Shown here one piece after another: positions 11,819 to 20,800 of a stretch of DNA of 64,000 nucleotides. The notes under the pieces are model-generated. The model did not search any database, had not been told where the DNA came from, and was given only the letters and a program-made list of their open reading frames with translations. The stretch comes from a virus. The position numbers were made by a program, and so were the translations under genes. The stretch's first letter is position 1, and the number at the start of each line of letters is the position of its first letter. The DNA lies in IMG/VR virus record IMGVR_UViG_3300046170_000505; one strand, 5' to 3'.

Positions 11819-14800
11819 ATGGCAGTAAGAGCAAATGTTGATCTAAAAGTAAACATGGCTTCAGTAAAACGAAGCATGGATCGCGCTGCTAGAGAAGTAA
11901 ACAAAACCGTACAAAATGTTTCAGGGAAAGATATATCTTTTAATGTAAACGGAAAAAGCTTTACTCAGCCGCTTGGTAGAATTACATCGTCTGCAAATGA
12001 ATTCACCAAATCTTTAGAAGCTTCTAATGCTCGTGTTATAGCGTTTGGAGCTTCAGTTGGAATAATTAATGCAATAACAGATTCTTTTAAATTTTTAATT
12101 GCAGAAACTGTTAGGTTTGAAAAAACCCTTCAAGATATTAACGTGGTTTTAAATTCCTCAAATGAGCAGATACAAAAGTTTGGACAAGGTTTATTTGATG
12201 TAGCGCAAAACACAGCTCAATCTTTCAATATTGCCGCTGACGCCGCTCTTGAATTTTCTCGTCAAGGTTTAAGCGTAGAAGAAGTTTTAAAAAGAACTAA
12301 CGATGCCCTCACATTGACTCGTATCACAAGCTTAGATGCGGCTGAAGCTGTTTCTGGATTAACTGCCGCAGTAAATGCTTTCGGGGAAGCAGGTTTAACT
12401 ACAACGGATATTATAGATAAACTAGCGGCTGTAGACGTAAAATTCGCTGTTAGCTCTGAAGATCTAATTAACGGTCTTGAGCGGGCTGGCGCTGTTGCTA
12501 TTGATGCTGGTGTTGACCTTGATAACTTAGTTGGAATTATAACTTCTTTGCAGCAAACAACTGCTCGTGGTGGTGCGGTTATTGGTAATGGACTTAAAAC
12601 TATTTTTACGAGAATCCAAAGGCCAGAATCCATCAGGCAGCTAGAAGATATGGGCGTTGCAGTTAGAACTCTAACTGGAGCAGTTCTTCCAGCTGACAAA
12701 GTCTTAAAGAATATAGCAAAAGGTTTTGAAGAACTATCCCAAAGTCAACAATCAAACATTGTTCAGTTTGCCGCTGGAATATTTCAAGCTAATATTTTTA
12801 GAGCCGCTCTTACTGACTTAGCAAAAACTCAAGGTATTCAACAGCAAGCTACTGAAATATCAGCTAACGCAGCTGGAGAGGCAGCTAGAAAAAATGAACT
12901 TTTAAATAAAAGTATATCCGCTATGGCTTCGCAAGCTGGTTCTGGATTAAAAGAACTAGTAGGAATAATGGGTGAATTGGCGATAAAGCCAGAGCTAGGC
13001 GAAGCAGTTGGAATATTTGGTAATGCTATAGAAGGCTTAAAAAATGCATTAGGAGGAGGAGAAGACGAAGGTAATGCGTTTGCAAAAGGTTTAGTTAGAG
13101 GTATTGGGAATGTTTTGACTGGTCCAGGAGTTATAGCTTTTGCGGCTATTTTTACAAAACTTTTATTTAATGTTTTTAAGTTCGCTTCTGGTTCGTTAAA
13201 AGATGTTTTAGGAATAGTAACTCAAAAAGAAAAAGTTAGGCAAATTGAAGAGTCTATAGTCAAAGTATTAGGCTCAAATGTTCAAGTAACTCAAGCTTTA
13301 AATCGACTTGAAGGAGACAGGATTGCTCAAGAGCAATACATACTGGGGATAATAGAAGCTCAAACAAATGCGCTTGCAAAACAACAACAACTCGCAAGCA
13401 AATTAGGCCCCGCTCTTTTAAAAAGAGGGATAACTCCAGATCTTAGTTACGATAATACCCCTGGTACGCTTGTTGATATCGATGGAGATGGGGTGATTTC
13501 AGGCGCTGGAGGTATTTTACCTCAAGAAAAAAATGCAGAAAGAAAAGGAGCCATAGAAGGAGGCTATAGCCCTGGAAGAGTAAACAAAATGAAAGTCCCT
13601 GGAATGGGTGATGTTATTTATAATACCGCCGAAAAAGTAAAGAATTTTGAGGGAATGAAACAGCCTGCTATTATGCCGCCACAAAGCAGTAGGGCTGGAA
13701 GAAACTATAAAGAAAAATTTTCAGAAAAACATGGTTTTGATCCTTATGCTAGTGGAGGACTTATTCCTAATTTTGTGCCCAGAAAAGGCTCTAATGTTGA
13801 TAAGGTTTACCAATTATTAAAAAATGCCTGGTTGTCTGAAGGGTACAGAATGACAAACAAAGAACTTACAGATGCCACTGGCCTTCCAGGAGCCCCTGAT
13901 AATCCATATAAAAAAGCCAATTCAAGCTTTAATAGAGATTTTGGAGCCAAATTAAACAAAGCTGGATACACTGTTAATACAAGACCACGCACAGAATACT
14001 ACCAATACTTACCAACGAATAAAGAAAAAATTGCAAAATTTATACAACGGGAGCAAGACCCCGCAAAAAAAGGAATTGCGACAATAACCGATGACGAATT
14101 AATGGATAAATTTTTAAAACAAAAAATTTTAAAATCCGCATCTGGACATCATTTTCAAGCCGCAATTGAAGCTGGAGGAAGATCTAAAGTATCTTTTGCA
14201 AATTCAGTTACATCTTACAGAAATCAATTCGTCAACGAAGACAAGCTTGTAGCGCCACCAATATATTTAAAAGATGATTCAACTTACGTTGGCCCACCTA
14301 ATTCTAGTCCATGGGCAAATGTATCATTAGAATCTAAGGGAAAGTCAAAAGTAAATGCTACTGGCAAAGAAATTGATAGTGTTTTCAATGGTATAAAAAA
14401 CGGAGCTCCTCAAAGTTTTTTAGGTTTAGATAAAAGGTTTGATATAAACCCACTAACTAAAAAAGAACTAGCCGACTTCAAAAAACAAAATTTTAGCGCA
14501 AATGTTGATCATTATGGATTTGCTAAAATGCAAGGAAACCCACCAAAACCCGTTTTTTTAAGTTATAATACTTTAGCAAATGCGCCTTATAGCTTGAACG
14601 CGAATGGATTTGAACATGCAATTTCAGATTTTAAACGTCGTAAACGAGGACTTGCGGGATCTCCTCTTGATTTTATAGATGTCCCTGGAGAAGCTAAATT
14701 CGGACCAACAGCATATAAAAACACCCTTGACGAGCATTTAACAGGAAAATTTTTAAGGCACTTAATTGGCACTGACTCAATATCATGGCCACCACGAGCA

Positions 14801-17800: not shown

Positions 17801-20800
17801 TTATATGCTCGTGAATATTCACTTAGCGATAGCAACCTAAAAGAAATGACGTCTGGAGTTTACAGTTCTGGGAATTTAAGAAAACTAAGGGTTATGAGTA
17901 GAGCTTTCGAGGCGAATAATGAAATGCCTGATCAAAATGACGAAGAGTGGGAAGATGATCTTGTCAATAATTCAGGAAATGGATTTGATGATGCTTCTGA
18001 TGAAATGGAAGGCAGGCTAGGCGCATATTCAAGACTAAGAAAAACCCAAAACCAAAATCGTTTATGGAAAAATAGTATGGCTGGAACTATAAATAACCCA
18101 CTACCGTTAGCAACATATAAGACTAATGAAATGTTTGGGCCTGGCTACATTATACCTGACTTAGGCGCTCTTGATATTTATCAAGATGGATTTACAACCG
18201 AAGATGATAAAAAAATAAGGTCAATATTCTCTCCAAATTTAAATCGAGATAATCATCTAATTGAAAGAAAAATATCCGAAAAGCATTTAGACAATAAAGG
18301 GTTTTCAGAAATGTTATCTGATGTAGCAAAAGATCCAGAGAAAGCAATGAATGCTTCCAGAAGAATGGGGATTGAGGGAATAAAAGAGCATGTTGATAAT
18401 CAAAGCAAAGGTTTAGTTCCTAATTTTGCTTTTGACCCAAACAGTTTTGAAAAAAATAAACGAGCAAGGAACGTTCATGAACAAATGTTCGGAACGCTTG
18501 ACAGCAGAACAAAAGATATCCAAAATCGAAACCAACTTAACAGAGAGAAAGCCTTGCGCGGAGAAGACCCAAAACTATTCGACAGGCATTACCCTGATCC
18601 AATCTTAGGACAAGCAAGAAATAAAATAATCAATGCCCCAACTGGAGGAGGAGAGAAAAATGTTGCTCAAGCTATCAGATCATCAAAAAGGATTGAAAAA
18701 TCCAAAAAAGAAGAATTAATAAAACAAATAGGAAGCCAAAGGCTCAAAGACCTAGATGAAAAATACTTAAATAAGTCAAACAAAAATAGTCATACGTCAA
18801 GACTACAAAGATTTGTAAAACAAAGAAAAGATCTTGAATCAGCTATTCAAAGTGAAAATTTTGAAAAAGCTAGAGAAATCAAAAATGCAGACTTTATACA
18901 AAACGAAAAAATTTACAACGAGTACGCGAACTATTTAGGAGAAACAAGATATTTAGACTCCGATGTTTCAACAGCAAAAAGAGCTCAAGAAAGATTTGGT
19001 AAAAATCCTCATTCAGACTCAATGAATGATCCAAACACTTTAGGGTATTATCCAGGTATAACAAAATCTTATGGAGTTCCAGGAGAAAAATCTATATCTT
19101 ACAATCCATACCAAACCGATTACCCTAAAAAAGGCCCAAGATCATTTAGAAACTCTGGTTTAATACCAAATTTTTCTAAAGTTTCAAGAACGATAAAATC
19201 TCAAGAAGATAGGGTCAAGGGTAAAGGAGAGTTTATTGGAGGCGGAGTAAGTGAAAGGGATAAAGACATAGCGTTTAATATGTTTGATCATTTCATTTCT
19301 AAAATCTCAGGGTTATCTAGCTCTTTTGGATTAAACGAAAGAAGAATGTCTTTAACTGGCACCGCAGAAGACAGAAACTTAATTGAAACATTTAAAACTT
19401 CAGGCAAAAGCGAAAAAGATTTAATTCAAATAGCGGGAAGCCAAAGAAAACTTAGGAATATATTAGACGGCTACATGCTCGGGCATTTTGAAACTTTATT
19501 GCTAGCAAAAGGAAAGTTCAAACAAGCAGAAGACCCTTTAATGCAAGGAGATCTTAGTAAAGGTTTGGTGCCTAATTTTGCGGGCATGGACTTATACAGG
19601 GGAGTAATAAGAGACAAGGGAGCTAAATACAACAAAAAAGATGTTTTTGAACTAACTCCCAAGAGGCAAAAACAATTCGCATCTAGTTCGATAACCAGCA
19701 TAGAAGATCTTAAACAATATTTGCTTGGACATACGGATAATCAAAACGCATCGTCCCTAGTATCTACATCAACTCAAAAAAGCGTAGCCATGGAGTTTGC
19801 AACAAGCAAGGATTCTTCAAAGCAAGGGTTAGTATCAAAAGAAAACATGAGTTTTAGACGTATGTACAATCCTAGAAAAGTAGAAAAATTGCTTAATTTT
19901 ATGATGGACAGAAAAGGCTGGTCGGAGGCAAAGTCAGTTCAGTGGTTTTTAGAAAACGCTAAAAATAAAGACATCGGATTTCACATAAAAAGGTGGATGG
20001 ATGAAGGTAGTAAATTAAAAAAACAAAATGAGTTTGAAGATGAAGTAGCACTGCTAGGAAAGCAAGCTTTTACTGACAGAGACAACTTAGCCCCTTTTTC
20101 AAAAGGATTAACTCCTAATTTTGCAAACCCTCTTTCAGACGCTTTACAAAGAGAAAAATCGGCTGGCGTACCTAGTTCAAGAATCAGGGTAGAAAAAAGT
20201 TCTCAATTAAAAAGCCCAATGAATCCAATGGGTCTTGCAGTCACAAACACTCGTGATGAACCAGGTGGATTAGCTCAAGGAATAAGAAGAGCCAAAAAAC
20301 AAGGAATAGACCCCAAGAGACACGGCATTGATGTTCCAAATTTTGCAACTCCAGTAAGCAAAGATCAATTTGATAAAATTTTGAATGATATTGTATCTAA
20401 AGCAGAAAGTTCATTTAAGGACATAGAAAAAACCCTAGATGACATTGAGCTAGGAGATTTAGCTAAAGATCTTAAAAAGAAATTTGATGATTCAATAGAA
20501 GAAGCGAAGAAAACAAAAGATACCAAAAAAGTTCTAGATATAAAAGACGAAGCTGAAACCATCAAACAAAAAGGGATAGATAAATTTACAAAAAACCCTA
20601 AGCAAATACTTGGTTCGAATAGCCAGCATTCCATTGGAGCCACAAAAGATAATGCAGACAAAAAGATGGCGCAGCTCGAAGAAGCAACTAAAAAATTAAC
20701 TTCAAGTATAGAAGAAGCCGATATAGAAGTACAACAAAACACAAAAAGCCAGGGGGACAACTTAGTCAAACTTTTTGCACTTCAATCCATAATTAGTACT

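Follow-up and report, generated by a model that had tools for sequence, protein, structure and literature searches.

The 64,000-nt viral record IMGVR_UViG_3300046170_000505 (hereafter the window, that is, the whole stretch analysed) harbors one very long open reading frame (ORF), which stays open over 15,156 nt (positions 11819-26974, + strand) and encodes a tape measure protein (TMP) of 5051 aa. This protein is referred to as P0001, and labels of the form P00xx designate related TMPs. Between its conserved N-terminal domain (N-domain) and its conserved C-terminal ruler and tip region, P0001 embeds a variable array of modules, each delimited by copies of one and the same short peptide. On balance, and with no great confidence, we lean towards the idea that this array represents cargo that travels in the tail within the TMP, i.e., a set of functional modules that would be delivered to the host just ahead of the DNA.

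The identity of the gene was established as follows. Residues 117-316 of P0001 match the PhageMin_Tail family PF10145 (2.3e-25; 90 bits, with a cut-off of 33), and TMP families of PHROG match its first 660 residues (best 3e-48). The genes lying 3' of it encode minor tail proteins, L-like and K-like proteins and a 1739-aa I-J fusion, corresponding to the M/L/K/I-J set of lambda. Based on these matches and on the downstream tail genes, the product is identified as a TP901-type TMP, and the phage as an uncultured marine siphovirus whose tail tip resembles that of lambda. The stretch spanning aa 3161-4420 (47.5% E/K/Q/L/A, 6.6% P+G and 3.8% aromatic residues) is ruler-like, as judged by composition only. 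A protein identical to P0001 is carried by a 142-kb contig, and close relatives are found on contigs of 120-210 kb. Related loci have been binned in metagenomes of many phyla, the commonest being Flavobacteriaceae/Flavobacteriales, binning being weak evidence of the host.

The element that organizes the array is the linker. The strict expression G[LF][IVT]PN[FY] retrieves 11 copies in P0001 (aa 647, 1033, 1151, 1225, 1480, 1743, 1936, 2198, 2447, 2582, and 2763), and the looser expression [IVTL]PN[FY] adds two more (NVIPNF at aa 1905 and IDVPNF at aa 2837). More decayed copies are recognizable in GAIPNN (around aa 1923) and in GGILPQ (aa 562-569), the latter aligning with GFIPNY of the relative P0102. 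The mean number of copies expected by chance, estimated from 2000 shuffles of P0001, is 0.0015 for the strict and 0.18 for the loose expression; the other ORFs of the window, which total 13,122 residues, contain no strict copies and two loose ones. Synonymous codons differ at nearly every position among the 13 P0001 copies; hence, the conserved unit is the peptide and not a DNA repeat. The motif is present in 51 out of 51 giant relatives, with 425 copies in total, from which the nonapeptide consensus [A/S]-x-G-[L/F]-[V/I]-P-N-F-[A] is obtained. In the AlphaFold models built with family alignments, the linkers all have a low predicted local distance difference test score (pLDDT, 27-57). In the light of this conservation and of the low pLDDT, the linker looks like a conserved short linear motif within a flexible, probably disordered stretch. 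In the relative P0003 (L042), the second linker (around aa 1035) reads GLIPSF instead of GLIPNF; therefore, one linker can decay, fusing two modules, and the same applies to P0001 at aa 562-569 and around aa 1923.

The linkers bound 11-12 modules of 66-378 aa each between aa 647 and 2843, and an all-against-all BLASTP comparison revealed that these modules are mutually unrelated. A preliminary description of this stretch, made from its letters, had proposed that a TMP carries at positions 13757-20344 an array of about 11 unrelated modules of 68-380 aa, bounded by 10 canonical and 4 degenerate linkers. The gene identity, the module number, their lack of relationship and the linker count are all borne out by the data reported above, and the coordinates proved to be right to within 3 nt. 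It had also stated that no small immunity ORFs flank the gene; indeed, no small ORF lies beside it, and its direct neighbours are genes for proteins of 375 and 358 aa. Compared with the helical ruler part, the modules are richer in aromatic residues (9.0% vs 3.8%) and in Pro/Gly (11.9% vs 6.6%). Confident AlphaFold models were obtained for families 2, 5 and 1 (Table 1). Families 4, 18, 11, 7, 22, 5 and 1 have no assigned function.

The comparison with other TMPs is in agreement with an exchangeable array. Searching with the array region alone retrieved 51 TMPs, between 2790 and 7487 aa long. When the proteins of the relatives were cut at the motif and the pieces clustered, the N-domain and the C-terminal region emerged as conserved, and the array modules fell into 78 families, with 3-22 modules per protein, variable in number and order. 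Module order differs even between proteins that are about 90% identical over their shared parts. The preliminary description had envisaged homologous TMPs with conserved flanks and variable module number and identity, and this is the extant scenario, order being variable as well. A check that does not depend on the motif gave a concordant picture: 67 out of the 91 BLASTP segment ends falling in the array have a motif no more than 12 aa away (median distance of all ends 6 aa), the yardstick being a motif-to-motif distance of about 170 aa. P0003 (4560 aa, encoded on a 202-kb contig) is the nearest relative whose array differs, and its gene is flanked by the same genes as that of P0001. These comparisons show that the modules are gained, lost and reordered through exchange at the linker.

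When shorter proteins related to the N-domain were sought, 2350 matches were obtained, some of which come from Tara Oceans and JGI samples. Their common form, 2000-2400 aa long, possesses four motifs (at about 544, 626, 880-930, and 945-1000); in this basal form, a single module of about 250 aa lies between two small bracket modules. Both bracket modules are kept in P0001, the first one with a decayed upstream motif (Table 1). These proteins show that the array and its linker go back to the ancestor of a TMP family with more than 2000 members, and P0001 is an enlarged version of the ancestral design. One relative harbors 22 strict (24 loose) motif copies, and P0044 (7487 aa), P0041 and P0036 have extra motifs and a second family-14 bracket near the C-terminus (at 7202 and 7293 in P0044). 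No match to aa 600-2900 of P0001 was retrieved by tblastn from 50,697 phage records.

The ratio of nonsynonymous to synonymous substitutions (dN/dS) was calculated by comparing, codon by codon, the P0001 gene with that of P0003. Most of the modules shared by the two proteins are under purifying selection (dN/dS 0-0.34, see Table 1), the highest of these values (0.32-0.34) being those of families 2 and 4; the N-domain has a value of 0.056 and the coiled coil of 0.33. Neighbouring modules vary in dS from 0.03 to 0.52, as expected from mosaic histories. We infer that the modules are functional proteins. Family 15 is the only one among the shared modules for which dN is close to dS (dN 0.032, dS 0.030), which suggests either a very recent transfer accompanied by fast amino-acid change or a relaxed constraint.

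Another feature common to the whole array is the avoidance of cysteine. P0001 does not contain any cysteine in its 5051 residues, there are 18 in the 198,316 residues of fifty relatives, and 356 array modules have 5 in 65,175 residues. The proteins adjoining the TMP in the window have a cysteine content of 0.25-2.7%, and about 33 cysteines would be expected in the P0001 array at a content of about 1.5%. According to these counts, the 78 unrelated module families follow the same no-cysteine rule as the ruler scaffold. Because the array modules avoid cysteine as the scaffold does, we infer that they share its extracytoplasmic fate, probably crossing in a partly unfolded state.

Concerning the possible activities of the modules, the clearest motifs are those of the ADP-ribosyltransferase (ART)-like module (family 23), in which R6, S61, S63, E152, and E154 do not vary among five sequences whose identity goes down to 44%. 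The E. coli heat-labile enterotoxin A (LT-A, plasmid p666) exhibits the blocks LYRAD, YVSTSLS and YEQEVSALGG in the same order; the R-to-STS spacing is 55 in the module vs 54 in LT-A, whereas the STS-to-ExE spacing is 91 vs 49, i.e., the module has an insert. Its language-model neighbours are the NarE, Scabin-like, pertussis-S1 and enterotoxin-A clusters (0.92-0.95), to be taken as a lead only. No ART family of Pfam matches it at E<=1. An exhaustive HMMER search among 1.84 billion representatives gave four matches to the family, namely one TMP-like protein of 4831 aa and three short fragments, and no homologue outside TMPs. It is probable that this module is an ART of the R-S-E type (cholera/LT/pertussis/NarE).

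The kinase-like module (family 9) has a Gly loop (IGNGMES) followed in order by VVYK, DVHSGNF and IDFS in eight sequences, which, being 73-93% identical, provide weak evidence. In the language-model search it falls close to clusters of viral "protein kinase", T7-kinase and Kinase-PolyVal (0.93-0.95); no profile match was obtained, and the near-length word-index search with its alignment was also empty. A protein kinase is a plausible identity for this module. In family 2, 21 sequences with identities as low as 16% all share D156, E168, and K170, and in the confident model the Asp and the ExK lie on consecutive strands (162-165 and 174-176). The hhalign comparison of families 2 and 15 paired their D...ExK blocks exactly (E 0.02, probability 2%), and the two families are plausibly nuclease-like modules with the D...ExK arrangement of the PD-(D/E)xK pattern. 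Additional activities are suggested by the relatives: SNase exceeds the Pfam gathering threshold in modules of P0029 and P0050 (28 and 30 bits, cut-off 21), P0029 also harbors a CI-type helix-turn-helix (HTH) module detected by Pfam, and the Pfam search of 105 module representatives revealed also HTH domains of the Crp and MarR types and two AAA_33 matches. The likely source of these latter (P-loop kinase) is family 21, all six members of which have a Walker A motif.

How might such an array work? Three or six copies of the TMP occupy the tail lumen; they exit first at infection and form a channel across the envelope. According to the idea that we favour, the modules of P0001 would ride in the lumen as part of the TMP and reach the host just before the DNA. 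Since ART-, kinase-, nuclease- and HTH-type modules need cytoplasmic substrates, they would be aimed at cytoplasmic targets, for host takeover or counter-defence. The linker would most likely be a short linear motif read in trans. That it serves as a processing site freeing the modules is a tentative proposal, which we would not regard as probable; that it is a handling or docking site for a component of tail assembly or ejection is considered slightly less probable still. In a bolder scenario, itself somewhat unlikely, all the P-N-F linkers would be cut after assembly (by a protease or by Asn-driven self-cleavage), and the cysteine-less modules would queue in single file in the lumen until, ahead of the DNA, they are fired through the TMP channel into the cytoplasm; the nonapeptide would be a universal load-and-release tag, with which ready-made enzymes for takeover and counter-defence are exchanged in evolution. 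If this were true, the tag might serve to equip phage tails with proteins of choice. The array is placed between two hydrophobic/Gly-rich segments (aa 425-457 and 3055-3117), and glycine-zipper segments of TMPs have been linked to the passage of a type VI nuclease effector across the membrane (PMC10240207). Moreover, lambda gpH and T5 pb2 are cleaved inside the finished tail, somewhere within a glycine-rich stretch, by an activity that has not been identified (PMC12617516).

Several findings weigh against a delivered set of functional modules. No P0001 module reaches any curated threshold of Pfam, PHROGs or NCBIfam, the PDB profile searches performed with the alignments of four module families gave nothing, and the fold searches gave no significant match for any module searched. 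In the hhalign comparison of the ART-like module with LT-A, only the ExE blocks were paired (probability 0.4%, not significant). Its model, obtained from a 7-sequence alignment, is poor (pLDDT 27-73) because the alignment is shallow, which in turn depends on the fact that HMMER found only four matches, and structure searches with it had no significant match; the kinase-like model (pLDDT 25-69) is poor for the same reason, i.e., a shallow alignment. The ART, kinase and two PD-(D/E)xK motifs named in the preliminary description hold at the level of the sequence, and of the module folds that it had proposed to model, those of families 2, 5 and 1 are confident and those of the ART-like and kinase-like modules are not. 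A physical difficulty is the width of the tail lumen, about 4 nm, which has to house three to six TMP copies: modules of 250 aa would have room in it only if unfolded or, when folded, lined up one behind another. As for an enzyme acting on the linker, P0001 lacks the HExxH of an embedded zincin, and no such motif is conserved in the relatives. The phage encodes a papain-family cysteine protease of 400 aa (PF00112, 9.5e-16; window 57652-58854, + strand), which was considered as a conserved linker protease and discarded; it was not found in five genomes with related TMPs and, for this reason, is probably unrelated to the linker. Lastly, TMPs as a class tend to be cysteine-poor, and part of the cysteine signal may be a trait of the class; the class-wide scarcity alone would not explain globular inserts free of cysteine.

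Different explanations of the array can be weighed against tail-borne delivery. Among these, the one that we take most seriously, though we judge it unlikely, is that the modules are never released: the linker would dock a tail-assembly chaperone, the inner wall of the tube or a factor of the host entry channel, and the modules, tethered in an array, would act on the TMP at the entry site. This idea fits the finding that neither a conserved protease nor an embedded peptidase was found in P0001 and in the relatives examined, as well as the nature of the motif, which is hydrophobic, beta-prone and placed in disordered linkers, as is typical of docking motifs. In addition, the flanking hydrophobic, glycine-zipper-like segments could anchor the array at the membrane, and a related G-G-x-I-P motif repeats in the C-terminal tip-proximal region. 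However, the spacing of the motif is irregular (66-378 aa), unlike a periodic contact with the tube, and the first and last linkers lie precisely at the borders between the array and the conserved scaffold, as would be expected of a processing site; besides, the TMPs of lambda and T5 are cleaved (PMC12617516). A quite improbable alternative is that the modules are not cytoplasmic effectors but domains for envelope penetration, structural domains or spacers, working in the periplasm or tuning tail length. The known TMP inserts, at least those cited in PMC12617516, are cell-wall hydrolases, most modules do not belong to a recognizable family, and the fold searches were without significant match to solved or predicted structures. 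Nevertheless, no peptidoglycan-hydrolase family was matched, the motifs of the ART-like and kinase-like modules point to enzymes that use NAD+ or ATP, relatives have SNase, P-loop kinase and DNA-binding HTH modules, and the purifying selection acting on a non-helical sequence rich in aromatic residues and Pro/Gly speaks against mere spacers.

We give very little credit to the possibility that the array is a late polyprotein, whose modules would be freed in the producing cell and left unpackaged, only the N- and C-terminal parts ending up in tails. A protease of the producer cell alone would suffice for this, and the poor fit of folded modules to the tail lumen would be accounted for; on the other hand, the near-zero cysteine of the 78 module families matches that of the scaffold, which points to a shared extracellular, translocated fate, and a ruler cut before assembly could not join the N-domain to the C-terminal region. 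The hypothesis that the giant ORF is an artefact of assembly or gene calling can be practically dismissed: no point was found in its support, the frame is uninterrupted over its whole length, the same protein occurs on the 142-kb contig, and P0003 is present on 11 contigs, two of which are shown to derive from different ENA samples.

The tail-borne cargo proposed here resembles, in different respects, systems that have already been described. The polyvalent proteins reported by Iyer, Burroughs, Anand, de Souza and Aravind in 2017 (PMC5512222) are giant proteins of phages and conjugative elements with shuffled, unrelated enzyme domains, including ART and kinase ones, for which co-delivery with DNA and splitting were proposed; TMPs are not mentioned in that paper. 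Like them, P0001 strings together unrelated modules that are shuffled among relatives, the enzymatic nature of which is suggested by motifs and by the Pfam matches of relatives, and its kinase-like module falls near the Kinase-PolyVal cluster in the language-model search. However, polyvalent proteins are regarded as head or pilot proteins, frequently MuF-based (PMC5512222), whereas in P0001 the carrier is a TMP, a uniform nonapeptide surrounds every module, and no embedded peptidase was found. Their hallmarks (MuF, ArdC-N, zincin MPTase, SNF2 helicase and methylase) had no Pfam match in P0001 or in the 105 module representatives. Polymorphic toxins (Rhs, contact-dependent inhibition (CDI) and MuF-toxins) also join a conserved scaffold to variable toxin-like modules swapped at a conserved junction motif; unlike P0001, with its many internal modules and no immunity ORF, they have one C-terminal toxin and an immunity gene.

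Enzymes embedded in TMPs are also known, and the examples cited in PMC12617516 are the Rpf-like motif of mycobacteriophage TM4 and the muramidase/peptidase of staphylococcal phages. In them a catalytic domain is part of the TMP and is delivered at infection, as we propose for the enzyme-like modules of P0001; in contrast to P0001, these cited TMPs have one or two cell-wall hydrolase domains, which are extracytoplasmic, and no linker-delimited array, ART-, kinase- or nuclease-like content or shuffling of cassettes is described for them there. In the Sle1-type TMP-related effectors of actinobacterial contractile injection systems, reported in 2026 (PMC13277306), a TMP-derived scaffold packed in a tail-like tube has an exchangeable functional domain, as in P0001; unlike P0001, they belong to a bacterial injection system, have one C-terminal domain and a partner, Sle2, and no repeated linker or array is described. 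Regarding processing, the P0001 locus shares lambda-like tail-tip genes with the systems in which gpH is converted into gpH* and gpHC and T5 pb2 is cleaved (PMC12617516), but there a single C-terminal cut occurs, no cargo is released and no P-N-F motif is reported. The preliminary description knew of no multi-effector TMP, and we also found no linker-delimited, multi-cassette TMP in the published literature searched; the broader idea is nonetheless not without precedent, given the polyvalent proteins and the swappable domain of Sle1. What is new here would be the virion-borne multi-effector concept, known from polyvalent proteins, built into a TMP with a linker grammar of its own.

If the array is delivered, long-tailed phages would have a second route for injecting pre-made proteins, beside the head-internal one of T4 Alt, P1 Dar and the MuF-type polyvalent proteins, and this route would follow a grammar of its own, with a single linker peptide, a pair of bracket modules and the absence of cysteine. 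The family comprises more than 2000 TMPs, a large number of them marine-metagenomic, and its dozens of orphan module families might represent a pool of likely takeover or counter-defence activities. Furthermore, a repeated and sharply defined candidate site bears on the question, raised by lambda, of how and where TMPs are cleaved in the tail.

Table 1. Features of the TMP gene, its module array and the neighbouring tail genes (window positions; aa numbering of P0001; dN/dS from the comparison with P0003)
Feature	Position	Strand	Evidence
TMP gene, 5051 aa, 0 Cys	11819..26974	+	
PF10145 PhageMin_Tail core of N-terminal domain, aa 117-316	12167..12766	+	Pfam 2.3e-25, PHROG TMP families
N-domain hydrophobic, Gly-rich segment, aa 425-457	13091..13189	+	
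Decayed linker GAGGILPQ, aa 562-569	13502..13525	+	aligns with GAYGFIPNY of P0102
First bracket module, family 14 equivalent, aa 570-646; after N-domain in most relatives	13526..13756	+	
Linker 1 GLIPNFV	13757..13777	+	
Family 15, aa 654-1031; invariant PLDF...GEAKFG (D...ExK-like)	13778..14911	+	dN/dS ~1.1 at dS 0.03
Linker 2 GLIPNFA	14915..14935	+	
Family 4, aa 1040-1149; 31 copies in relatives	14936..15265	+	
Linker 3 GLVPNFV	15269..15289	+	
Family 18, aa 1158-1223, 66 aa	15290..15487	+	dN/dS 0; 100% identical in P0003 at dS 0.23
Linker 4 GLVPNFA	15491..15511	+	
Family 2, aa 1232-1478; invariant YP[VI]D...E-x-K...SKSLR, 21 sequences	15512..16252	+	pLDDT 80-93, no significant structural match
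Linker 5 GLVPNFA	16256..16276	+	low pLDDT in model
Family 9, kinase-like, aa 1487-1741; IGNGMES, VVYK, DVHSGNF, IDFS	16277..17041	+	model poor
Linker 6 GLIPNFA	17045..17065	+	
Family 11, aa 1750-1903	17066..17527	+	
Degenerate linker NVIPNFV, then 24-aa spacer holding decayed GAIPNN	17531..17551	+	
Linker GFIPNYK	17624..17644	+	
Family 7, aa 1943-2196	17645..18406	+	
Linker GLVPNFA	18410..18430	+	
Family 22, aa 2205-2445, Lys/Glu-rich	18431..19153	+	dN/dS 0.08
Linker GLIPNFS	19157..19177	+	
Family 5, aa 2454-2580, small helix/hairpin domain	19178..19558	+	pLDDT 70-88; dN/dS 0.12
Linker GLVPNFA	19562..19582	+	
Family 23, ART-like, aa 2589-2761; DLYRG, LVSTST, FEDEVALLG invariant in 5 sequences	19583..20101	+	dN/dS 0.10
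Linker GLTPNFA	20105..20125	+	
Last bracket module, family 1, aa 2770-2835; nearly always final module in relatives	20126..20323	+	dN/dS 0.035, pLDDT 76-83
Degenerate last linker IDVPNFA	20327..20347	+	
Conserved C-terminal region, aa 2844-5051: long E/K/Q/L/A-rich helical part and Gly/Pro-rich tip-proximal end	20348..26974	+	
Glycine-zipper-like, hydrophobic segment right behind array, aa 3055-3117	20981..21169	+	
Lambda-like tail-tip genes (minor tail proteins, L-like, K-like, I-J fusion)	26971..42672	+	

The surroundings of the TMP gene exhibit some further features. Two proteins with divergent InlB B-repeat (Flg_new_2) domains, of 2439 aa (3319-10638, + strand) and 375 aa (10635-11762, + strand), adjoin it upstream; the pair, for which there is no PHROG match, occupies the place expected for the major tail protein and chaperones, and the same pair is found in P0003. 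At the opposite end of the tail genes, the 1739-aa ORF (37453-42672, + strand) consists of a lambda gpI-like tail assembly domain (aa 1-110) fused to a gpJ-like central tail fibre. Genes for glycosyltransferases of families 1, 2 and 9 and for a nucleotide-sugar epimerase are located at 42669-46917 (- strand) and at 50602-51141, 53651-54556, and 62189-63319 (+ strand), and ribonucleotide reductase genes (54829-57252 and 60181-61194) are interleaved with this cluster, which may represent a phage-borne set for the modification of cell-surface sugars.

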